64,000 bases of DNA from Dehalococcoidia bacterium (GTDB taxonomy: Bacteria > Chloroflexota > Dehalococcoidia > Lucifugimonadales > UBA2962): the NCBI GenBank assembly GCA_965116605.1, contig OZ220697.1, positions 1,617,427 to 1,681,426 of the forward strand, in the 5' to 3' direction. The stretch's first letter is position 1. Each line of letters opens with the position of its first letter. Below are positions 11,852-33,686 of this stretch, piece after piece. A program made the translations under genes and the position numbers. A model generated the notes under the pieces. The model made no database searches. It worked only from the letters and a program-made list of their open reading frames with translations, and was not told the DNA's origin.

Positions 11852-13603
11852 CTAACCCTCCATTGCCTCCCTGATCCGGGCGTCGATCGCCGACCGGGCA
11901 TCTTCATGAGCCACAAGGATCAGCAGGGCCCGGGCCCTGGACAATCCCACGTATAGCAGTGACTGGACCATCTGATCTTCCACGTCCTCTATGTCGACTA
12001 CGATTACCACCCTGCTCTCAAGTCCCTTGAACGAGTGGATCGTCGAGAACCTCAGGCAGTCCGCGGGAGCGTCCAGTGACCGCGAGCAGTCGACGAGCGG
12101 GATACCGTTGAGCCTTTCGAACGGGGCAAGGGCGGAGTTCTCAAGCCGCCGGGGCGACAGGACGATCACCTCGTCCGCGCCTACTCCGCCCCTTGCCAGT
12201 CGGTCGATGGTCTCCCCGAGGGCCTTCTCCAGCCCGGACCTGGTCCGCCAGTAGCGGCGCTCGACCGGCAGCCCTGCCTCATGGCCAAGTCTGAACGGCG
12301 GCCTATTGAATCCCCCGAAGATAGCCGCCTCTTCGGCGATGGCCCGCGTGTTGCGGCAGTTGAGTGTCAGCCTCGCCCTGACGAAGTGCTCGCAGTAGTC
12401 CGAGAGGTCTACGGCGGACTCGGAGGCGGCGCCGTAGAGGACCTGTCCGGTAAAGTCCCCGAAGATCCCCCACGTCCCTCCGGCCAGGCCTCCCCGTATT
12501 GCCCGGTTCGCAAGGTCGAGCGTGGTGCGGCGGAACAGATCTTGCGCCTCGTCCATCACCAGCACGTCGAACGGTCTATCCATCTCCTCCAGGGCGATCT
12601 CGCCGTAGAACGGATACAGCTCGTCAAAGAGCCCGGTAAAGTCGTCTCCTTCTATGGCATGGCGCTCGTGCTCGAGGAACTCCTCCCCCACGCTGCTGGC
12701 GGTCACTATCCCCCTGAGGGTCCTGTGCCAGGATCCTGCCGCTATCCCGGTGCCCTCCGTCTGTCTGGCCAGCCAGTCCCCGAGGAGGCGATTGAAGCAG
12801 ACGAAGAGCACCTTTTGTCCCGCCCTGTCCGCCCGCCGGGCGTACTCCAGGGCCAGCAGCGTCTTGCCGGTGCCGGCGGCCCCCTCGAAGAGGCACCTCG
12901 GGTTGGCCGCAAGCTCATCGAGGCGATCGTACTGCTCGCCGGTCAGGCTCAGGAGCCTTTCCTCGGTTCTTCCCAGCGAGACGGACCTTGCGACCACAAG
13001 ATCGAAACTGGGCCTGAGGTAGCCGACCAGCGACCTGATCTGGGATGTGGTCGGAAGAGACTCGCCGCTGCGCTGCTGGAACTGCCTCAGCCGACTTTCG
13101 ACGACCCGCTTGATGGACGAGGAGACAGGTCGCCGAAGGTCCTCGGCGTCGATCACGTCGCTTCGCTCGAATTCCGGACTGTCCGGCGGACAGGCAACGT
13201 CGGGGAACACGACCGCGAACCCGATCGGACAGGTCGCCTCGGGGGAGGCCCGACCGAAATGGTCTGCGATCGCCCTGCGCAGGGCGAACATGGACTCCCT
13301 GGCCTGGGCGAACGGGCTCTTCTTGAGGTCTGTGGACCGCCCGTACCGATCCATCGTGCGCCAGATCCCGTCCCGGCACGAGACCCGTCCGCCCTTTACC
13401 TCAAGGCAGACGACTCCCTCGCCCGGGACGATTACGACGAAGTCTATCTCCCCGTAAGGGCCCGTCGGCCTGCGCGCCAGCCCGAGAGAGTGAATGACCG
13501 TCCATCCCGCTGTGTCCGGGTCGTGCTCGAGCAGGTCGAAGATCCGCCTCTCGGCAGAGCTCTCGACCGCCTCGTCGATCTGTGCAGGGATCATTCTGGA
13601 CAT
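11852..13603 (-). CDS. NERD-domain / superfamily-1 (UvrD-like) helicase fusion
   Basis: The N-terminus (ERRIFDLL...YGEIDFVVIVPGEGVVCLEVKGG) is NERD-like. It is followed by Walker A GAAGTGKT, Walker B VLVMDEAQD, then STIHSFKGLESRVVIVVD and LLYVGLSRARALLILV, typical of UvrD/Rep-like C-termini. Confidence 0.8.
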   Translation of the reverse strand: MSRMIPAQIDEAVESSAERRIFDLLEHDPDTAGWTVIHSLGLARRPTGPYGEIDFVVIVPGEGVVCLEVKGGRVSCRDGIWRTMDRYGRSTDLKKSPFAQARESMFALRRAIADHFGRASPEATCPIGFAVVFPDVACPPDSPEFERSDVIDAEDLRRPVSSSIKRVVESRLRQFQQRSGESLPTTSQIRSLVGYLRPSFDLVVARSVSLGRTEERLLSLTGEQYDRLDELAANPRCLFEGAAGTGKTLLALEYARRADRAGQKVLFVCFNRLLGDWLARQTEGTGIAAGSWHRTLRGIVTASSVGEEFLEHERHAIEGDDFTGLFDELYPFYGEIALEEMDRPFDVLVMDEAQDLFRRTTLDLANRAIRGGLAGGTWGIFGDFTGQVLYGAASESAVDLSDYCEHFVRARLTLNCRNTRAIAEEAAIFGGFNRPPFRLGHEAGLPVERRYWRTRSGLEKALGETIDRLARGGVGADEVIVLSPRRLENSALAPFERLNGIPLVDCSRSLDAPADCLRFSTIHSFKGLESRVVIVVDIEDVEDQMVQSLLYVGLSRARALLILVAHEDARSAIDARIREAMEG

Positions 13604-14889: not shown

Positions 14890-14932
14890 ATGCCACAGTT
14901 CACCACTACGTCCGTTGATGAGGCCCGGAGGA
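14890..14932 (+). pseudogene. 5' fragment (14 codons) of a small ORF split by the IS256 insertion
   Basis: AGGAGG (14873-14878) then ATG 14890, MPQFTTTSVDEARR. The reading frame continues exactly at 16981 once the IS and one copy of the 8-bp duplication are removed. Confidence 0.6.
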
Positions 14933-14982
14933 GGTCACGTCCCGTCAAGTGGTGTATTAGGGCGTCATCCTGTTGATGATGT

Positions 14983-16184
14983 TCACGCAGCAGTTGGCTG
15001 TGGAAGCATCGCCTCCGGCGATGCTTCCAGTTCCTGATCAATGCCCGGAGATGTAAGCGTCAGGTAGCGGCGCCCGATAGCCCACTCGTCGTGCTGCTCT
15101 GCCAGCACCGCTCCCACCAGCCGGCGTGCAGCAGGCCGGTTCGGGAAGATACCGACCACATCCGTCCGTCTGCGGATCTCCTTGTTGAGCCGTTCCAGCG
15201 GGTTGTTCGACCAGATCTGCCTCCAGTGAGGTACAGGGAACGCCGTGAAGGCCAGGACGTCAGGACCCGCCTCGGACAGCATCGAGGCGGCCTGCGGGAA
15301 CCGGTCCTCGAGCTGGTCTATCACCCTGTGCAGCTGCGCATGCACCTCCTCGGCCGACGGCTGCTGGTAGACGGTCCTTACCATCGTCGCCACCGCCGGC
15401 TGCGCTCGCCTGGGCACACGGGTCAGCAGGTTGGTCATGAAGTGGGTGCGGCAGCGCTGCCAGCTCGCTCCCGCGAAGACCGTCGCGATCGCATCCCTCA
15501 GACCGCGGTGAGCATCGGATACCACCAGCTCCACACCATCCAGGCCTCGGTCGACCACAGAGCGCAGAAACGCCAGCCAGAAGGCACCGTCCTCGCTGGT
15601 CCCCACGTCCATGCCGACGATCTCGCGCTTGCCCTCGCCGTTGACCGCTGTCGCCACCACCACGCTCACGTTCACTATCCTGCCCGACTCCCTCACCTTC
15701 TGCGTCAGCGCATCCAGCCATACGTACCGGTAGGGACCTCCGTCCAGCGGCCGGCCCAGGAAGCTGTCGACCACCTCGTCGAGCTCTGAGCAGATACGTG
15801 AGACCTGGCTCTTTGAGATGCCCTCGCATCCCAGGGCCTTTACCAGGTCGTCCACCCGCCTCGTCGACACACCCTCCACGTATGCCTGCTGAATGACGCC
15901 CAACAGGGCTCGCTCGCTGCGCCGCCGCGGCTCCAGAAGGCTCGGGAAGTAGCTCCCCTCCCTCAGCCTGGGGATCCGAAGGTCCATCGTCCCAACACGT
16001 GTATCCCACTGCCTGGACCTGTACCCGTTGCGCTGGGTCACACGCTCCGTGCTGCGCTCCCTGTAGCCCGCACCGGTCCTGGCTGAGACCTCGGCATCCA
16101 TGATCCCTTCCACCAGGACCACCAGCGCCTCGCGCAGGAAATCCACGTCTCCGTCCGCACCACGCTTGCGCAATATCCCCAGCA
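14983..16184 (-). CDS. IS256-family (Mutator-type) transposase, exon 2; exon 1 is 16852..16873 (GTG) or 16852..16858 (ATG)
   Basis: The translation is nearly identical to the 407-aa ORF of copy 2, with few substitutions (e.g. SVVDRG/SVADRG, FLGRP/FLRRP, AIATVF/AIASVF). Typical strings are present: DGAFWLAFLRSV..GVELVVSDAHRGL..WQRCRTHFMTN. The track's 461-aa ORF reads on into the intron by chance. Confidence 0.9.
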
Positions 16185-16851
16185 GTAGGGTAGGCCGCCG
16201 GCGAGTTACTCCGGTTGGAGCACTTTTCCGTCGGCCCCCCTCCGAACCGTGCATGAACTTTTCAGTCTCACACGGCTCTCCAGTGACACTCGTCCAGGTT
16301 CTCAACCCGGATGGCACGGAAAGTGGTTTCGGCGTTACGCATTCCGCGCACCTCCCCACTCTCCGCACCGGTGCCGCCTGCCCCCCTTCGCCATGTACCG
16401 GGCTTTCCCCGGCTCGGACTACTACGAGGGCTCCGTGACCATAGGGCTCTCGCCCCGTAGGCCATCCCGCGTTACGGTGACACAGGACGTCCGAGCGCGA
16501 CTGTAGGTGCCCCGTTCATCCCCTTGTATGGCCTCATTGGTCATCGTCCGCTCGGCGGAGTTGCATCGGTCTGGACCTGTTACCGGTGCAACGAGCGGCG
16601 CCGGGTTACAAGCGTTCTACCGGCGGGTGAAAGGAACACCTTCCGGGAACTGGGGTTCAGGCAATCCAGCTTTCACCGTATCGCGCGGGTCTTGCGGAAC
16701 CGGCCCTACAACGCCTTCAGGCCGTAGCCGCTTTACCGACATGCTGTTTTCCCCATTGGCTTTCACCGCAAGGTAGGTCGGTTGACCCAAGAACTTTCTC
16801 CGAGTTCTTCCCGATTGAGTCGGGTATCCTATGCCGCGTCACGCGGCGCAC
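16185..16851 (-). ncRNA. ORF-less group II intron (self-splicing ribozyme / retroelement derivative)
   Basis: - Absent from IS copy 2.
- On the minus strand it starts GUGCG and ends CCUAC.
- Domain V is GAGCCGUGUGAGACUGAAAAGUUCAUGCACGGUUC (plus 16244-16278).
- The domain VI helix has a bulged A 7 nt from the 3' end.
- EBS2 UCCUUUC (plus 16629-16635) and EBS1 GGUCCA (plus 16572-16577) are complementary to the last 13 exon nt, GAAAGGAUGGACC.
- Excision restores the transposase frame. Confidence 0.9.
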
Positions 16852-16980
16852 GGTCCATCCTTTCCTTGACCACCGTCGCCCTCCTTGAGTTTTGTTGTTA
16901 GTCCTCTAAGGATGACGCGGTGGTCTCTCTTTATATAGATCCTCCTAATACACCACGTGCTGGGACGTTACTCCGGAGGA

Positions 16981-17315: not shown

Positions 17316-17984
17316 TTACGTGAGCGCGACGCGATAGGACGTCAGGATTTCCTCGACGTAGACACGACCAGCGCCGTCGCTGAGACTCCGGTTGTCGGGC
17401 GGGACGGGTAAAGGTCCGCCTTCAACTTCTTCGAAACAACCGGCTGGACAGCGGTCGCCAAAGAAGACGTAGGCGTATCCCTCGGGCTCTTGGTGCGAAC
17501 GCCAGGTCAGGCCTTCAGCCCAGGGCGACCAGTTTCTAGTCGCCGAGCACCAGCGGCGTGTCATCGCGTAGTCGCTGGCGTCCGAAGCGGTCAGCCAGGT
17601 GTCCTGACCGACTGCTGCAAGATCTTTGCCTGAGCGGAGGCTAATCAATTCCAGGTCGCGCGTCGTGCGCAGCCAGCCGATTCTCCGCCTCGCGAGGCTG
17701 GCGCGCGGTAGCAGACGTGCACCTCGTTCGTCGATTGGAATGTCACGCAGCAGCACTTCGGCCACGGTGGTGCAGTCGTCCCCGGCAGCGTAGAGGAAAG
17801 GGTACTCATCGCCGGGCGTTGCATCGAATCGGCCACCCCTGAGGCCGCTATTTGCCACGGTTGGATTGAACTGGAGTGCACCGAAAGCTGTGCTGTGGAT
17901 GCGGGTTAGTGTAGTTCCTGCTGGCAGCAGGAGGCGGACCGGTGAGCCATCGTAGATTAAAGGGGGTTGGTGGATGGGCGACAA
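17316..17984 (-). CDS. RES-domain toxin (RES/Xre type II TA)
   Basis: 222 aa. The GGRFD motif, downstream conserved acidic and Ser positions, and the pairing with an upstream MbcA/ParS-like gene 6 nt away all fit the RES family. Confidence 0.7.
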   Translation of the reverse strand: MSPIHQPPLIYDGSPVRLLLPAGTTLTRIHSTAFGALQFNPTVANSGLRGGRFDATPGDEYPFLYAAGDDCTTVAEVLLRDIPIDERGARLLPRASLARRRIGWLRTTRDLELISLRSGKDLAAVGQDTWLTASDASDYAMTRRWCSATRNWSPWAEGLTWRSHQEPEGYAYVFFGDRCPAGCFEEVEGGPLPVPPDNRSLSDGAGRVYVEEILTSYRVALT

Positions 17985-17990
17985 TCCCGG

Positions 17991-18707
17991 CTACCCGACC
18001 AGCTCGGTAGCCACCTCGGCCACTGCGACGAGGTCGTCTGATCGATCGGTTCCGACAAGCTCAACAGGTCGAGCACTCAGACGGGCGTGAGTTGAGAACC
18101 ACCAGGACGCTACCGCCCAGGGATCAGCCGCGCCCTCGAGCAACTCGTTCACCGTGCGCACCTCGTGAAAGATGCTGCGTCGCTGAGGATCGAACTGGAA
18201 TGCCGGATACACATAGCCTCGGCCCAGGGGCAGGCCGAGGAGCCACGAACGTTCGCGGAGCTGCCTGACCTTCTCGCGGTTCGTTTCTTTGGCTCCCAGT
18301 GCGACTGCGACATGCCTTGGCTGGAGCATTGGTTCACGCCAGATGGTGTGGATCGCCTCACCCTGCAGCCTAGCCTGTGCCATCACGGTTTGCCCGACCT
18401 CATCGAGTACTTGACGCGGAGTGCCTCCAAGCTGCCGGACGAGGTCACTCCTCTGTGCGAGCAATACCAGCCAGCTACGGAGCAGGGTCTCATCGCCTTC
18501 CAAGGCGTGATGCCGAGCTGCAATAGATGCCGCGGCATCCAGCAGATCCGATTCCGGTCCGACCCAAACGGCGGCAAGACGATCCAGTAACTCGGCTGTG
18601 CCGTGCCGCCGATGTGACACATGCCTCAGGAGCGCTTCCACAAGCTTCGCATCACCGTGATCGCGCTCAAGATCCCGTAGTTGCTCTTCGAGTCGGCTCG
18701 TCATCAT
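17991..18707 (-). CDS. Xre/MbcA/ParS-like antitoxin (DUF2384-type C-terminus)
   Basis: The C-terminal ...DPWAVASWWFSTHARLSARPVELVG resembles the W..pn..LgG..P..L toxin-binding tail of RES-partner antitoxins. It lies directly upstream of the RES gene. Confidence 0.6.
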   Translation of the reverse strand: MMTSRLEEQLRDLERDHGDAKLVEALLRHVSHRRHGTAELLDRLAAVWVGPESDLLDAAASIAARHHALEGDETLLRSWLVLLAQRSDLVRQLGGTPRQVLDEVGQTVMAQARLQGEAIHTIWREPMLQPRHVAVALGAKETNREKVRQLRERSWLLGLPLGRGYVYPAFQFDPQRRSIFHEVRTVNELLEGAADPWAVASWWFSTHARLSARPVELVGTDRSDDLVAVAEVATELVG

Positions 18708-25709: not shown

Positions 25710-25871
25710 ATCGCCTCGTCCTCAACTCATTGCGTGATATAGCGATCTTCTCATAAGGCCGGTCAGTTTGAGACCGGTCCTGGGAACAGGGAACAGAGCA
25801 ACCGCAATTGAATTGCAATGTCCGTATCCTCCCTGCGAATGTAGAAAGTCGATGCACTAGGGACGCACGCG

Positions 25872-27244
25872 GGTCACGTCCCGTCAAATGGTGTATTAAG
25901 GCGTCATCCTGTTGATGTCGTTTACGCAGCAGTTGGCTGTGGAAGCATCGCCTGAGGCGATGCTTCCAGTTCCTGATCAATGCCCGGAGATGTAAGCGTC
26001 AGGTAGCGGCGCCCGATAGCCCACTCGTCGTGCTGCTCAGCCAGCACCGCTCCCACCAGCCGGCGCGCAGCAGGCCGGTTCGGGAAGATACCGACCACAT
26101 CCGTCCGTCTGCGGATCTCCTTGTTGAGCCGTTCCAGCGGGTTGTTCGACCAGATCTGCCTCCAGTGAGGCACCGGGAACGCCGTGAAGGCCAGGACGTC
26201 AGGACCCGCCTCGGACAGCATCGAGGCGGCCTGCGGGAACCGGTCCTCGAGTTGGTCGATCACCCTGTGCAGTTGAGCATGCACCTCCTCGGCCGACGGC
26301 TGCTGGTAGACGGTGCGCACCATCGTCGCCACCGCAGGCTGCGCACGCCTGGGCACACGCGTCAGCAGGTTGGTCATGAAGTGCGTGCGGCAGCGCTGCC
26401 AGCTCGCTCCCGCGAAGACCGACGCGATCGCATCCCTCAGACCGCGGTGAGCATCGGATACCACCAGCTCCACACCATCCAGGCCACGGTCGGCCACCGA
26501 GCGCAGAAACGCCAGCCAGAAGGCACCGTCCTCACTGGTGCCCACGTCCATGCCGACGATCTCGCGCTTGCCCTCGCCGTTGACCGCCGTCGCCACCACC
26601 ACGCTCACGTTCACTATCCTGCCCGACTCCCTCACCTTCTGCGTCAGCGCATCAAGCCATACGTACCGGTAAGGACCTCCGTCCAGCGGCCTGCGCAGGA
26701 AGCTGTCGACCACCTCGTCGAGCTCTGAGCAGATACGTGAGACCTGGCTCTTGGAGATGCCCTCGCATCCCAACGCCTTCACCAGGTCGTCCACCCGCCT
26801 CGTCGACACACCCTCCACGTATGCCTGCTGAATGACGCCCAGCAGGGCTCGCTCGCTGCGTCTTCGCGGCTCCAGCAGGCTCGGGAAGTAGCTCCCCTCC
26901 CTCAGCCTGGGGATCCGAAGGTCCATCGTCCCCACGCGTGTGTCCCACTGCCTGGACCTGTAACCGTTGCGCTGGGTCACACGCTCCGTGCTGCGCTCCC
27001 TGTAGCCCGCACCGGTCCTTGCGGACACCTCGGCATCCATGATCCCTTCCACCAGGACCACCAGCGCCTCGCGCAGGAAATCCACGTCTCCGTCCGCACC
27101 ACGCTTGCGCAATATCCCCAGCAAGTCCATCCTTTCCTTGACCACCGTCGCCCTCCTTGAGTTTTGTTGTTAGTCCTCTAAGGATGACGCGGTGGTCTCT
27201 CTTTATGTAGATCCTCCTAATACACCACGTGCTGGGACGTTACT
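25872..27244 (-). mobile_element. IS256-family insertion sequence, copy 2 (intron-less, no target duplication)
   Basis: It has the same terminal inverted repeats as copy 1 and is 1373 bp. The 8-bp flanks differ (CGCACGCG versus CGTCAAGG). Confidence 0.9.
25922..27145 (-). CDS. IS256-family (Mutator-type) transposase, intact
   Basis: 407 aa, MVKERMDLLGILRKRG..., collinear with copy 1. The DDE-type strings are as listed for copy 1. The true start may be ATG 27130 (MDLLG). Confidence 0.92.
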   Translation of the reverse strand: MVKERMDLLGILRKRGADGDVDFLREALVVLVEGIMDAEVSARTGAGYRERSTERVTQRNGYRSRQWDTRVGTMDLRIPRLREGSYFPSLLEPRRRSERALLGVIQQAYVEGVSTRRVDDLVKALGCEGISKSQVSRICSELDEVVDSFLRRPLDGGPYRYVWLDALTQKVRESGRIVNVSVVVATAVNGEGKREIVGMDVGTSEDGAFWLAFLRSVADRGLDGVELVVSDAHRGLRDAIASVFAGASWQRCRTHFMTNLLTRVPRRAQPAVATMVRTVYQQPSAEEVHAQLHRVIDQLEDRFPQAASMLSEAGPDVLAFTAFPVPHWRQIWSNNPLERLNKEIRRRTDVVGIFPNRPAARRLVGAVLAEQHDEWAIGRRYLTLTSPGIDQELEASPQAMLPQPTAA

Positions 27245-27245
27245 C

Positions 27246-27704
27246 GTCAAGGGTTGGCCCCACAGTTTGCGAAGGACTTTATGGTGCCATGCGATCTTGA
27301 ACCCGAAGGTCCACCCGCTGAATGTAATTTGTGCCAAGGATACGGGTGAGCCGAAGCGCCCACTGAACGAGAAGGAGCGCAGCGAAGTCACGACCATTGT
27401 CAGTGCATCGCCATGGCGTTTGAGGCCGCAGGAAGTCCGAGAAGTAATTGACCGTACCGAAAAACCGCCATGGGAGTTAGGGATGGGTTAGCCATTGAGC
27501 GGCAAACTCGGCATCGAGCCGCCTTAACCGCCTAGCCTAGTCGATTCTCTGCCGCCAGTACTCGGTTCGCCACCAGCAGCAGGTCCGCTGAGTAAGGCCT
27601 ACTTGGCGGTAGGCCATGGCGGCCGTAAGGCCGTCCGCTATCGCCGCCCTGGCCTACCGTAACTTGTTTATCACCTGCTCAGGACTGTGCTTGCGTCTCG
27701 CCAT
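27246..27704 (-). pseudogene. IS3-family element remnant (orfA with two in-frame TAGs, cut by IS256 copy 2)
   Basis: From ATG 27704: MARRKHSPEQVINKLR*ARAAIADGLTAAMAYRQVGLTQRTCCWWRTEYWRQRID*ARRLRRLDAEFAAQ. This follows the IS3/IS407-type OrfA pattern (..PEQIi.kLReAe..la.G.tv.e.cRqlGis.qTyYrWRkeYgG...dqakRLkeLe.EN). The TAGs are at 27654-27656 and 27537-27539. Confidence 0.6.
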
Positions 27705-29453: not shown

Positions 29454-32400
29454 TCATTTGATGCGAATCTCCGCCGGGTCATCCTCATCGGTCACGTTGA
29501 TGGTAACCACGATGCTGTCCTTGGCACCGAGCGGGTCGGTGGCGGTCACCACAACGGTGTAGATGCTCTTGGCCTCGTAGTCCACATCGGCCTTCGTCTC
29601 TAGCTGGCCACTCTTCCTCGATATCTTGAAGGATCGAGCGTCTTCGCCGCCAATGGTGTATATGAGCAGGTCGCCGTCTGCGTCATGGGCGAAGACCGGG
29701 TCTCCGATGTTCTGCCCTTTCTCCGTGTTCTCGGGCACCTGCCGGCTCGTCGCGTCAGACTGGTCCCCTTCGGTGGTGAAGTCCTGGTCGGGGAACACCG
29801 GCGCGGCATTCACGCTCGGCAATATCGGCGCAGGACCAGTTGTCTTGCGCCCCCTCACAGGGGCTTCCAACAGTCCCGTCACATGTTGTTCAGCCTCATC
29901 TACGTCGTCCGTGTAGACCACCGCAGCTCGCAGACACCTGCCCACGTCGGCCGACTGAGGCGCGTAGATCTCTGAAGATGCGCCGTCTATCGGAGTCCAG
30001 ACAGCATCTTCACCGATGTCCCGGCACCTGGCCGATGGGGAATCGACCTCCGCGGACCGCTCCCACACCCACCGGGTGATGGCAACGCCACCGTCCGGGT
30101 CACTGAGCGTGGCCATCACCTCGATCCCTACGTGCGGCTGCCTCTGGGACAGGAGCACCTCCCCACCATCGTGCGTATTCACCACCTCGATGGCCACATC
30201 CAGTCTTGTCGTAAGCCTCCGGGGTCCCTCACCTGAGCGGGCCTCGATGACTATCGAGTAAGAGATCTTCTCCTCGAAGTCGGGCTCGCGACCCGCCCTG
30301 AAGCTGAGGACTCCATCGCTGTCGAACTCAAACTGGCTGCGGTCGTCACCGGACACCCTGTAGGTATATGGGGGGGTATCCTCTCCGTCCTGGTCGGTTA
30401 CAGTGTAGGTCCCGGCATCCACGGGGGTCTCTCCATCCCCGAGCGTGATGACCGGCTCGTCTTCGGGGTTCTCCCTGACTCTCAACACCGTCGGGGCGTC
30501 CTCATCGAAGGCGGGGGCTTCGTTCACCTCGGTCACCTTGACGACCACGTTCACCGTTGCCGAGGCGGTCGAGGGATCACTCGCCCTGATCCTCAGGACG
30601 TACTCGCTGTTATCGCCCTGGCCGGCATCCTCCCCGGGGGGCAGCGCGGGCGCGCCGGACAGGACCGTCGAATCCTCGTCCACGCGCTCGCCGGCGTCAG
30701 CGCCCAGCTCCTCGCCGACTCTGAGCTGGCCAGTTGCGCTGTCGATGGTGAACCGCACGTGACCGTCCTCGTCCTCAAGGTCGGGGGTGTCCAGGAGTTC
30801 GTAGAAAAGCACGTCCTCGTCCGTGTCGGTCGCCGTCAGGGGCTCCCCTATGTCCCTGCCCACGGCTGTGTTCTCGGGGACGGACCGGGAGACGTCGATG
30901 TAGATGGTGTCTTCATCCTCGTCCAGATCGGCGAAGGATGGAGCGGCATTGAACAGCGTCCTGGCCTCCACGCGGTTGGCGCTGACCGCCGAGGCGCTCT
31001 TGCGCGGGCCGAACCTGTCGGCATAGGTGACCGTAGCACGCAGGTACATGTCCACATCGGCCGGAACCGGTCTGCGAGCCGGCGATGTAGCCCCCTCTAT
31101 GTCCGTCCAGATCTTTCCGTCCTCGGACCTTGCCCACTGCCACCTTTCATCTGTCACTCCCTCATCCTCTTCCAGAAGGCCGGCAGAGAGGGGCCGGTCG
31201 ACCTGCGGCTGCAGCCTGTCGATGCCCACCGATCCCGGCTCGTCAACGTCCGTCACCACAACGGCCACGTCGTGCGTGCCTCCGGCGCCTTCGACCGTAA
31301 CCCTGTACACGTTCCTCTCCGCCATCGGCACTCCCTCAACGGAGGACCTCGGCTCCTCGTAGTCGGGGGGCTCCCTGAAGGCCAGCACCCCGCGTCGGAT
31401 GGTGAACAGTTCGCCATCACGACCACCCAGGGACCACCTGATGGGATCGCCGTCCTGGTCGTGGGCGCTGAGCGAGGTAACCGGATCCTTATCGTTCTCC
31501 GGGAAGGTTAACGAGCTAATGCCGGTTATCTCGGCGGGTTCATCCACGTCGTTGACCCTGATGGACACCACTATGCTCTCGGATGCACCCGACGGATCGG
31601 TGGCGGTCACGATCACCTCGTGCCTCCTGCTGGCCTCGTAGTCCAGCGGAGCCTTCGTCTTCAACTGGCCGTTGTTCCTGGAGATCGCAAACGACGCGGC
31701 GTCCTCACCACCCAGGGTATACATCACTAGGTCGCCGTCGTCGTCGTGGGCGCTCACCGGCGTTCCGATATCGTGCCCGGGCCCCCTGTCCTCGTCCACC
31801 CTCCGGCTGGTCCTGGCCGCATTGCCAACGAAATGCGGGGCGTCATTTGCGGGTCTCCTGATCTGCACGGGAGCCTCCGTCACGCCCGTCACCTGCTCGT
31901 CACCCGCATCCGCCGGGTTGTCTACGTTGTCCGTGTAGGTCGCCGTCGCCCGAAGACACCTGCCCGCGTCGGCATGCCTCGGCGTGTACGACGCCGACCG
32001 TGCCCCATCTATGGGGATCCAGTCTCCAACCGGGCCGATGCCGGAGGTACCCGGGTCGTCACGGCATTCGGCAGACGGCGTACCGCCCTCATCGACGGTG
32101 ATCTCGGCGGACCGTTCCCACAACCAGCTAGTGATCCTCACCCCGCCGTCCGGGTCGTCGGCCGTGGCAAGTACCGTTGTGCCCACCTGCGGCTCCCTCT
32201 GGGACAGAACCACCTCCCCCGCGTCCTCTCCATCCAGCACCTCTACGGTCACATCAAGGGTGGCGGTCAGCCTGCGGGTTCCCTCGCCGGAGCGGGCTTC
32301 GATTACTATCGAGTACGAGGCCTGCTCCTCGTAGTCGATCTCGTGGCCCTGCCTGAAGCTCAGCACGTCGTCAGCATTGAAGGCTAGGACATCGCTGTCG

Positions 32401-33686
32401 GCACCGGACACCGAGTACGTGTATGAGGTGTCGTCGTAGGGGTGAGGACCGGTGAAGGTGCCGTCCTCGTCGGTCACGGCATAGGTTGCGGCATCCACCG
32501 GGGTCTCACCGTCCTCACGTGTGATGACCGGTGGATCCGCTCCCTCCCTGACCCTGAGGACCGTCGGAGGGTCCTCATCGACAAAGTCAGGGGCCTCGTT
32601 CACATCGGCGAACGTAACTATCACGTTCACCGCTGCCGAGGCGGTCGAGGGATCGCTCACCTTCACCCTCAGGACATACTCGCCGTTTCCGGCGTCGCCT
32701 GCATCTTCATCCTGGGGCAGAGCGGGATCACCGGTCAGGGCCGTCGAGTCCTCGTCCTCCCGCTCGCCCGTGTCGGCCCCCAGTACCTTGCCGACCCTTA
32801 TCTGGCCGGAGAGGCTGTCCATGGTGAACCGCACCTGGCCGTCGTCATCGGCAAGGTCAGGCGTGTCCAGAAGTTCGTAGAACAGCAAGTCCCCGTCGGC
32901 GTCAGTAGCCGACACCGTCCCGCCTATGGCCGTTCCCACGGGCGTGTTCTCGGGGACGGACAGAAACACCGTCGCAACATCATCTCCATTGCGGTCGACG
33001 AAGCGAGGGGCGGCGTTGGCCAGGGTCCTGGCCTCGACACGGTACGCAGTCACAGCCGAAGCAATCTTTCCCGGGCCGAACCCATCGGAATAGGAGACGG
33101 TCGCCCGCAGGTACATGTCCACATCGGCCGGCTGCGGGCTCCGCCTCGGTGCCGTCGCCCCCACAATGTCCGTCCAGTTCTTCCCGTCCGCAGACCTCGC
33201 CCACTGCCACCTCTGGCCCGTCACCCCCTCATCCTCTTCCAAGAGGCTGGCCTCGAGTGGCCGATCGACCTGTGGCTGGGGCCTGTCGATGCTCGCCGTC
33301 CCGGCCTCGTCCACATCCGTGACCGTTACGGAAACATCGTGCGTGGTGAGCCCGACTGCGATGGTGACCCTGTACAGGTTGCTCCCCGCCTGCGATTGCG
33401 GGTCCTCGTAGTCGGGGGGAGCCTTGAATGCCAGCGCGCCGCCATCGATGCTGAACAGGTCGGCATCAGGGCCGTTGAGGGACCACTCGATGGGATCTCC
33501 GTCCTGGTCATGCGCCCTGAAGGTGCCGACCGGGGTCGTGCCGTTCTCGGCGTAGTCCAGCAGGGAGTCGGCCGTCTGAGCGTATGCCCGATGTCCCGGG
33601 GGACCGCCCGTCACTAGGTCCACGATCACCATGCCTGCGAGCACGATGACCAGTGCGATGGCTGGGGGTTTCACGTACAGGGGCAT
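29454..33686 (-). CDS. Giant cadherin-repeat surface protein (1410 aa) with an internal two-fold duplication
   Basis: An N-terminal TM/signal segment (PAIALVIVLAGMVIVDLV) is present. Cadherin linker motifs recur (VTDVDEAG, DVNEAPDF, VNDVDEPAEI, NVTDEDDPAEI). The two halves are collinear. Confidence 0.8.
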   Translation of the reverse strand: MPLYVKPPAIALVIVLAGMVIVDLVTGGPPGHRAYAQTADSLLDYAENGTTPVGTFRAHDQDGDPIEWSLNGPDADLFSIDGGALAFKAPPDYEDPQSQAGSNLYRVTIAVGLTTHDVSVTVTDVDEAGTASIDRPQPQVDRPLEASLLEEDEGVTGQRWQWARSADGKNWTDIVGATAPRRSPQPADVDMYLRATVSYSDGFGPGKIASAVTAYRVEARTLANAAPRFVDRNGDDVATVFLSVPENTPVGTAIGGTVSATDADGDLLFYELLDTPDLADDDGQVRFTMDSLSGQIRVGKVLGADTGEREDEDSTALTGDPALPQDEDAGDAGNGEYVLRVKVSDPSTASAAVNVIVTFADVNEAPDFVDEDPPTVLRVREGADPPVITREDGETPVDAATYAVTDEDGTFTGPHPYDDTSYTYSVSGADSDVLAFNADDVLSFRQGHEIDYEEQASYSIVIEARSGEGTRRLTATLDVTVEVLDGEDAGEVVLSQREPQVGTTVLATADDPDGGVRITSWLWERSAEITVDEGGTPSAECRDDPGTSGIGPVGDWIPIDGARSASYTPRHADAGRCLRATATYTDNVDNPADAGDEQVTGVTEAPVQIRRPANDAPHFVGNAARTSRRVDEDRGPGHDIGTPVSAHDDDGDLVMYTLGGEDAASFAISRNNGQLKTKAPLDYEASRRHEVIVTATDPSGASESIVVSIRVNDVDEPAEITGISSLTFPENDKDPVTSLSAHDQDGDPIRWSLGGRDGELFTIRRGVLAFREPPDYEEPRSSVEGVPMAERNVYRVTVEGAGGTHDVAVVVTDVDEPGSVGIDRLQPQVDRPLSAGLLEEDEGVTDERWQWARSEDGKIWTDIEGATSPARRPVPADVDMYLRATVTYADRFGPRKSASAVSANRVEARTLFNAAPSFADLDEDEDTIYIDVSRSVPENTAVGRDIGEPLTATDTDEDVLFYELLDTPDLEDEDGHVRFTIDSATGQLRVGEELGADAGERVDEDSTVLSGAPALPPGEDAGQGDNSEYVLRIRASDPSTASATVNVVVKVTEVNEAPAFDEDAPTVLRVRENPEDEPVITLGDGETPVDAGTYTVTDQDGEDTPPYTYRVSGDDRSQFEFDSDGVLSFRAGREPDFEEKISYSIVIEARSGEGPRRLTTRLDVAIEVVNTHDGGEVLLSQRQPHVGIEVMATLSDPDGGVAITRWVWERSAEVDSPSARCRDIGEDAVWTPIDGASSEIYAPQSADVGRCLRAAVVYTDDVDEAEQHVTGLLEAPVRGRKTTGPAPILPSVNAAPVFPDQDFTTEGDQSDATSRQVPENTEKGQNIGDPVFAHDADGDLLIYTIGGEDARSFKISRKSGQLETKADVDYEAKSIYTVVVTATDPLGAKDSIVVTINVTDEDDPAEIRIK

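Follow-up and report, generated by a model that had tools for sequence, protein, structure and literature searches.

Two copies of an IS256-family element, one of them interrupted

The window analysed here, a 64-kb stretch of contig OZ220697.1 from a Dehalococcoidia bacterium, holds two copies of an IS256-family insertion sequence (IS) on its minus strand. In the first, the transposase gene is split near its 5′ end by a sense-oriented block of 667 nt that we identify, from its sequence, as a group II intron without an open reading frame (ORF). Copy 1 (14933–16972; 2040 bp, or 1373 bp without the intron) has imperfect terminal inverted repeats and is flanked by the 8-bp direct repeat TCCTCCGG at 14925–14932 and 16973–16980, in keeping with the hallmarks of the family: a Mutator-type DDE transposase, a length of ~1.3–1.5 kb, inverted repeats and an 8–9 bp duplication. 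Copy 2 (25872–27244), recovered by BLAST of the region against the window (25872–27245; identity 96% in the transposase body and 99% in the 121-bp left end), is intron-free and encodes an intact 407-aa transposase (25922–27145). Both transposases match Pfam Transposase_mut (PF00872) at E about 1e-133 (5e-133 for spliced copy 1), and the best IS matches lie in environmental assemblies, one of them labelled Dehalococcoidia. Copy 2 lacks an 8-bp target-site duplication, with CCTTGACG at 25864–25871 and CGCGTGCG at 27245–27252 where both flanks of copy 1 read TCCTCCGG; the difference points to an earlier rearrangement mediated by the IS or to recombination between the copies.

Pairwise alignment of the two copies places the 667 extra bases in copy 1 only, at 16185–16851, as an initial annotation of this DNA had reported. 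The block sits between ...ATGGACC and TGCTGGGG... (in longer form, ...GGAAAGGATGGACC and TGCTGGGGATATT...), where copy 2 runs uninterrupted as ATGGACT|TGCTGGGG (...GGAAAGGATGGACT|TGCTGGGG...). On the minus strand its termini are indeed the 5′ GUGCG and 3′ CCUAC first described; related introns share them, and they agree with the group II consensus (5′ GUGYG, 3′ AY). Two related, uninterrupted IS copies from a metagenome (L158 and L159) match the ligated exons exactly, reading ATGGACCTGCTGG with the junction ATGGACC|TGCTGG that excision would leave. The spliced RNA is accordingly expected to read ...AUGGACC|UGCUGGGG... across the junction.

That the block is a DNA-level mobile element resembling a miniature inverted-repeat transposable element, or that it is simply read through to give an N-terminally altered transposase (a 461-aa ORF from GTG 16368), strikes us as extremely improbable. 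The initial annotation had named duplications of the block's own as a sign of movement as DNA. Comparison of the sequence around 16185–16851 with copy 2 reveals neither a target-site duplication nor terminal inverted repeats, and the insertion is exact to the base against copy 2 and L158/L159, by which the DNA-element reading appears effectively refuted; read-through is weighed below with the reading frames of the intron.

The transposase gene of copy 1 comprises two exons, the first (16852–16873) running from a GTG codon at 16871–16873 to position 1 of codon 8 and the second (14983–16184) ending at the stop codon. Joined, they give a coding sequence of 1224 nt, or 407 aa, that is co-linear with copy 2 and differs from it synonymously at 40 codons and non-synonymously at 4 (4/407 residues; 99% identical). 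The proposal that excision restores the transposase frame is thus upheld, and what changes is its start: instead of the ATG at 16856–16858, translation probably begins at the GTG 15 nt (five codons) upstream, which is preceded by the Shine–Dalgarno sequence AAGGAGG (16880–16886) and a 6-nt spacer. We favour the GTG because the N-terminus is conserved among homologous transposases, which begin MVKERMDLL, MVKDSMDL or MARDSIDIL, several of them without an internal Met. With this start the intron follows nt 22 of the coding sequence, within codon 8, and the intron-binding site IBS2 (see below) is coding sequence, not a Shine–Dalgarno element. The unspliced message stops after 14 codons (MVKERMDRAPRDAA and a stop).

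Among the best 120 transposase homologues no intron-interrupted copy was found; the short or extended entries P0072, P0090 and P0092 are frameshifted or mis-called copies whose target sites are intact and empty. A scan of the minus strand upstream of the transposase, of a kind that is not informative for this phylum, found no sigma-70 promoter.

A complete group II ribozyme

Scanned against Rfam at the gathering threshold, the whole window returned a single match, to the group II domain V/VI model RF00029, at 16185–16280 on the minus strand (55.2 bits against a gathering score of 40; E=4e-8). The match spans the model from end to end and stops at the final base of the intron, so that the covariance-model check proposed with the initial annotation came out in its favour for domains V and VI (DV and DVI). 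The Rfam D1–D4 models gave sub-threshold matches only (RF01998, 17.4 bits against a gathering score of 35). A profile of the intron family aligns by nhmmer to 16373–16851 (E=6e-150) and 16185–16288 (E=2e-26), and nhmmer and Rfam together find the 667-nt intron alone, with no second intron in the window.

The upstream domains were placed with an RNAalifold consensus fold from a 22-sequence alignment of relatives. Domain I (DI; intron nt 6–385, window 16467–16846) contains subdomains Ia, Ib, IC and ID and is closed by a stem of nt 6–10 with 381–385. Within it, the α sequence in the Ib loop (nt 49–54, 16798–16803) pairs with α′ (nt 292–297, 16555–16560) in a pseudoknot of which 5/6 pairs change on both sides across relatives. 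Compensatory changes also mark helices 21–22 of domain II (DII; nt 388–416, 16436–16464), for example CG 11 times and GC 10 times, and helices 23–25 of domain III (DIII; nt 421–472, 16380–16431). With the α–α′ tertiary pairing added by hand before pairs were counted, 71 of the 122 DI–DIII pairs change on both sides, against a mean of 35.5 in shuffled alignments, none of 500 of which reached 71. Standard pairs occupy 96.8% of alignment cells, compared with 35–46% when partners are slid by 1–3 columns.

At the 3′ end, DV (nt 574–608, 16244–16278) was delimited by the Rfam and family alignments and a survey of DV lengths. It carries the AGC triad (nt 575–577) and the GAAA tetraloop noted at the outset; its description as textbook does not extend to its length, which is 35 nt against the usual 34 owing to one extra bulged A in the distal stem. 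The same 35-nt architecture occurs in three related introns (L082, L139 and L149), and we regard it as natural variation, with minor weight as a caveat. DVI (nt 611–665, 16187–16241), folded as a consensus of 24 relatives, presents a bulged branch-point A at −7, intron nt 661 (window 16191), where the initial annotation had put it.

We conclude from these features that the insert is a genuine group II intron: the RF00029 match, the homology of DI–DIII to full-length introns and the covariation that supports their fold all bear out the first description of an ORF-less intron in the start of a transposase gene. The ribozyme architecture of its full-length relatives appears complete, with DI–DIII, DV and DVI with its branch A, and it bears no sign of decay that we can read from the alignment: 117 of 120 consensus pairs are kept (117–120 in full-length relatives), and only one private substitution affects a column that 20 or more of the 21 other sequences conserve.

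Exon recognition and lineage

The initial annotation had noted two internal segments complementary to the 13 exon nucleotides before the 5′ junction, and the fold puts both where exon-binding sites (EBS) belong. EBS2, UCCUUUC (nt 217–223, 16629–16635), forms 7/7 Watson–Crick pairs with IBS2, GAAAGGA (16858–16864). EBS1, GGUCCA (nt 275–280), lies with the δ nucleotides CA (nt 273–274) in the 11-nt loop of a hairpin at nt 260–292 (GGUAACAGGUCCAGACCGAUGCAAC; δ and EBS1 together at 16572–16579); it forms 6/6 pairs with IBS1, UGGACC (16852–16857), and δ pairs 2/2 with positions +1 and +2 of the 3′ exon (UG). The two sites thus complement exon positions −13 to −7 and −6 to −1 perfectly (13/13), and both matches recurred in the correct order and spacing in only 2 of 20,000 dinucleotide shuffles of the intron.

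Relatives follow the same rules at unrelated sites. Full-length copies lie, for example, downstream of GxGKT-F codons in helicase genes, downstream of DExH codons and close to the starts of other genes, and their EBS loops vary with their own exons within constant flanking stems. Across 12 introns, EBS1 pairs with its own exon at a mean of 5.67/6 positions, against 2.54/6 for mismatched intron/exon combinations, and in each of the 12 δ forms 2/2 pairs, as CA/UG, GA/UC or GU/AC according to the first exon bases (mismatched mean 1.27/2).

Exon pairing of this kind had been read as IIA/IIB-type; the EBS/IBS pairings stand, and the class can be narrowed. Because δ adjoins EBS1 for 3′ exon recognition and the proteins of full-length relatives are LtrA-like, we assign the lineage to the mitochondrial-like (ML)/IIA class, an assignment that draws on δ placement and these proteins. 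The proteins, which provide the class test since the 667-nt copy is itself without an ORF, contain RVT_1, Intron_maturas2 (PF01348) and AI2M/AI1M-like HNH domains. Their best match of solved structure is LtrA (5g2x), end to end, at E=7e-121; the protein of the IIB intron T.el4h matches at E=5e-31 over the reverse transcriptase (RT) domain only. A IIB/chloroplast-like (CL) class, suspected because the DIII motif is phyletically widespread, was rejected in view of the LtrA-like proteins and the δ–δ′ covariation.

A lost reading frame and a structured domain IV

Between DIII and DV lies a 94-nt domain IV (DIV) stub (nt 473–566, 16286–16379) whose sequence can be aligned with the beginning of the ORF that encodes the intron protein in full-length relatives. 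In these, an ORF of 590–614 aa begins at about nt 511 (MQ.AETVLNVIRERG...) and ends in or just before DV; the stub keeps about 6–12 recognisable codons (MRNAETTF...) and then jumps to ~8 nt before DV. Compared with the 2.4-kb relatives, some 1.74 kb has been lost, leaving 667 nt where full-length introns have 2407–3269 nt. The intron is, on this comparison, best described as derived from an ORF-bearing intron by deletion of the ORF.

What remains is tightly folded (−45.1 kcal/mol, z=−3.6). A 14-bp stem (nt 483–496 with 526–539) encloses a vestigial Shine–Dalgarno sequence, GGAGG (nt 497–501), and an AUG (nt 510–512), and a second hairpin of 7 bp follows at nt 542–558. The stem of the AUG hairpin co-varies across the family, as UGCA/UGCA, GCGC/GCGC and CUC/GAG, with GCGC/GCGU in the 667-nt intron. 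DIVa, the subdomain that holds this start codon, is the principal binding site of the intron protein in IIA introns (PMC2882425), and retention of the hairpin seems best explained as what is expected of an intron still serviced by such a protein.

Over its final 184 nt the intron is free of stop codons in the frame of exon 2; this is the one feature that speaks for read-through, and it yields the 461-aa ORF (14983–16368). We also considered this open frame through DV as a vestigial C-terminus of the intron protein, and rejected it: close relatives use another frame, with the stop in the DV tetraloop. That the frame is open is due to chance. For the same reason the 461-aa ORF was rejected as a real gene, in agreement with its first description as an artefact. 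It begins at a GTG within the DIV stem, a protein made from it would lack the conserved N-terminus MVKERMDL, and none of the best 120 homologues has such an extension. The real product would be the 407-aa transposase that the two exons encode; annotation that allows for introns would correct the 461-aa artefact.

Proposed splicing, its likely helper and the expression of copy 1

We consider it probable that the 667-nt element is a non-autonomous, ORF-deleted ML/IIA intron that retrohomed into the sense strand of an IS256 transposase gene and is spliced with help in trans. The pre-mRNA would be transcribed from the IS promoter. An LtrA-like RT/maturase from a sibling full-length intron elsewhere in the genome would bind the DIVa stub and promote lariat splicing, with A661 as the attacking nucleotide at the 5′ splice site and the exons then joined at C|UG; transposase would be made from copy 1 only after this step. 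The most likely source of assistance is a sibling intron's protein encoded outside the window, because in bacteria an ORF-less intron nearly always shares its genome with related introns that carry an intron-encoded protein (IEP; PMC4424553) and because related metagenome-assembled genomes (MAGs) hold several full-length copies, for example three in OZ240213.1. Splicing of ORF-less introns in trans by related IEPs has been demonstrated (PMC4424553, PMC2882425).

For copy 1's own transposase, a ribozyme gate would be the logical consequence, and the intron would throttle expression of the element in cis. The gate appears leaky: copy 2, ~10 kb away, encodes an intact, 99%-identical transposase by which copy 1 could probably still be moved. 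Because IBS2 and IBS1 occupy nt 10–22 of the coding sequence, EBS–IBS pairing and binding of the 30S ribosomal subunit at the GTG probably compete.

Several observations weigh against an intron that is spliced and mobile today. No intron protein was detected at E≤1 when the 64-kb window was searched by tblastn with three related intron proteins, in line with the initial annotation's statement that the window has no RT or maturase. The extra A in DV is absent from the 23 nearest relatives among the matches listed. The cognate site in copy 2, between 27124 and 27123, is empty, although it lies ~10 kb away and offers 12/13 Watson–Crick pairs plus one G·U wobble (the T at −1 with EBS1), which suggests that retrohoming is not ongoing or efficient. 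No close sibling of the same ORF-less form was found in the metagenome scan or among the genome loci in the matches listed, and splicing in vivo is itself a step that we infer.

These points lend some weight to an alternative that we nonetheless judge unlikely, namely that the intron is a stranded relic, no longer spliced for want of a compatible maturase or through a harmful DV variant, so that copy 1 is transposase-null and mobilisable only in trans. The missing intron protein in the window, the empty site in copy 2 and the private base in DV would all fit such a relic, and many bacterial intron copies are inactive (PMC4424553). The ribozyme tells otherwise: 117 of 120 consensus pairs and a single private change are not the mark of decay, the EBS, IBS and δ pairings are perfect, and the DIV stub is tightly structured and not random. 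The DV variant is shared with other family members, and several full-length copies are present in related genomes.

Ll.LtrB-type introns need their protein at physiological Mg2+. Autonomous self-splicing without any intron protein in vivo, as proposed for C.te.I1 of Clostridium tetani (PMC4424553), is in our estimate improbable: a complete, well-conserved core, the lack of a maturase nearby and the C.te.I1 precedent would allow it, and against it stand the membership of an ML/IIA family with LtrA-like proteins and a DIVa start-codon hairpin whose co-varying stem is best explained by continued protein binding. Assistance in trans remains the reading that we prefer.

Relatives and recurrent loss of the ORF

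A scan for the domain III motif, run on one genome per species, returned at least 119 loci; it proved broader than intended, and close siblings may be missed by it. The closest introns among the matches listed, 2.4–3.3 kb long and found in Dehalococcoidia/Chloroflexota MAGs, are 82–88% identical by blastn and nhmmer over intron nt 1–483 and 567–667, at more than 15 such loci. A blastn search of plasmids gave 67–70% identity to Streptomyces and Rhodococcus introns with RT/maturase genes of ~600 aa, and found a 668-nt ORF-less relative inside an IS3-type transposase gene on a Microvirga plasmid. Two scans of viral contigs for sibling introns gave no matches.

Other members of the family have also lost ORF sequence, among them L046 (952 nt, only the HNH end kept), L093 (1633 nt) and the Microvirga intron. 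A metagenome scan for the ORF-less architecture yielded 34 loci whose complete introns measure 647–698 nt, similar sizes that are partly imposed by the narrow pattern (ORF start 25–55 nt from DV). These ORF-less relatives are only 67–76% identical to the 667-nt intron, with no metagenome locus above ~76%, which points to independent deletion events. We likewise rejected a shared ORF-less ancestor with the Microvirga intron, to which the near-equal lengths had pointed, given 67% identity to it against 82–88% to full-length Dehalococcoidia introns.

The family shows further arrangements of its own. An 8-kb stretch of the Dehalococcoidia chromosome OZ220672.1 (L046:2098–6979) holds three members: the 952-nt derivative with the HNH end only, a full-length intron of 2.4 kb, and a third of which the stretch contains the 3′ end. 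In four full-length relatives from Dehalococcoidia, the 3′ strand of domain I contains an insertion of 250–360 nt, at the equivalent of about nt 373 (L076:3078–3370, L086:343–608, L069:7315–7580 and L019:3807–4169). Read antisense, those of L076 and L086 encode homologous hydrophobic peptides of 70–71 aa (...GRGHP.GS.LRW.G...VLR...) and that of L069 a transmembrane-like peptide of 59 aa, so that the insertions may be cargo or a toxin-like gene inside the intron.

Soil-metagenome ORF-less relatives occur nested or in tandem (L127:307–1498, L135:2–937, L126:205–1419 and L134/L150/L136/L155). In L127 a second copy follows directly on a 683-nt intron, in L135 an inner ORF-less intron splits the DV of the outer one to form a twintron, and L126 has several repeated DVI segments. 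Four others (L128, L131, L132 and L144) sit exactly at the YADD motif (RYADD|F) of RVT_1/GIIM-type RT genes, that is, inside the ORFs of other group II introns, and others lie in IS6/IS240-type and IS3-type transposase genes (L157:7320–8017 and L002:2937–3604).

A bolder proposal, which we offer tentatively and hold to be doubtful, is that a large and for the most part uncatalogued guild of 650–700-nt ORF-less ML/IIA mini-introns exists in soil and subsurface bacteria, mobilised in trans and favouring the genes of mobile elements (RT YADD codons; IS6-, IS3- and IS256-type transposases), in which the 667-nt copy has been selected as a splicing-limited throttle of its IS, with the DIV stub re-zipped into near-perfect hairpins. 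If true, such a guild would contradict the view of ORF-less introns as rare in bacteria. The 34 further relatives, found with so narrow a pattern, suggest in any case that such derivatives may be commoner than RT-based surveys had indicated.

Comparison with known systems

Simon et al. reportedly surveyed ORF-less bacterial introns in 2008, and a later survey is that of Miura et al. 2022 (PMC8919778). The nearest parallel by origin is the set of ORF-less TeI3 introns of Thermosynechococcus elongatus (Mohr, Ghanem & Lambowitz 2010; PMC2882425), which are bacterial, arose when relatives with an ORF in domain IV lost most of it, show visible remnants of the ORF termini and a remodelled domain IV, and have good EBS/IBS pairings. 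TeI3 introns are spliced and mobilised by trans-supplied intron proteins, whereas the helper of the 667-nt intron is postulated; they belong to class IIB/CL and a cyanobacterium, ours to ML/IIA and Dehalococcoidia; and 17 TeI3 copies share one deletion, where here a single copy is seen.

By position, the closest counterpart is RmInt1 in ISRm2011-2 of Sinorhizobium meliloti (Chillon et al. 2014; PMC4238363), a group II intron that likewise splits an IS transposase gene. Its stop codons make splicing essential for transposase, and its splicing efficiency has been proposed to limit spread of the IS. RmInt1 differs in being a class D (IIB3) intron with its own RT/maturase in an IS630-family host, where the 667-nt intron is ORF-less, ML/IIA and hosted by an IS256-family element.

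With Ll.LtrB and its protein LtrA (Lactococcus lactis; 5g2x) the lineage shares the full-length protein match of its relatives, their RT, Intron_maturas2 and HNH architecture, IIA-type 3′ exon recognition by δ beside EBS1, and a start codon in the DIVa hairpin. The 667-nt ribozyme is nevertheless much smaller, lacks an ORF and is only distantly related in sequence. C.te.I1 is, like it, an ORF-less bacterial group II intron in a protein-coding gene; that intron self-splices robustly and its genome has no related IEP, whereas the IEP-encoding relatives of the 667-nt intron abound in related genomes, which makes a trans route likelier here. PMC8919778 attributes to Dai & Zimmerly 2003 archaeal ORF-less introns whose homing sites lie in genes of other mobile elements. 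The ORF-less introns in our own comparisons, namely those at RT YADD codons and in IS6/IS240- and IS3-type transposases described above, belong to the same broad family as the 667-nt intron, but have different targets, are 67–76% identical to it and would represent independent deletions.

Current concepts are left unchanged by these findings, for trans-spliced ORF-less bacterial introns and introns that gate IS transposases have both been published, the splicing-gated transposase for RmInt1/ISRm2011-2 (PMC4238363). What the locus adds is an extension of ORF-less ML/IIA introns to a Dehalococcoidia/Chloroflexota genome. A literature search combining 'group II intron' with 'Dehalococcoidia' retrieved no relevant paper, and this is possibly the first ORF-less group II intron described from Dehalococcoidia-type genomes. 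It also shows two selfish elements nested, with a ribozyme of retroelement origin lodged in a DNA transposon, an arrangement that would make expression of one element depend on the splicing machinery of a third, the helper intron.

Genomic surroundings

The region around IS copy 1 looks like an accessory or defence island. A RES-domain toxin gene (17316–17984, minus strand; Pfam RES, E=2.5e-16) adjoins the element and has a 238-aa ORF upstream (17991–18707, minus strand), with which it probably forms a toxin–antitoxin pair of the RES–Xre type; a NERD/UvrD-like helicase is encoded at 11852–13603. Beyond copy 2, and unrelated to the intron, lies a 1410-aa ORF with cadherin repeats (29454–33686, minus strand; Pfam Cadherin, E=6e-46).

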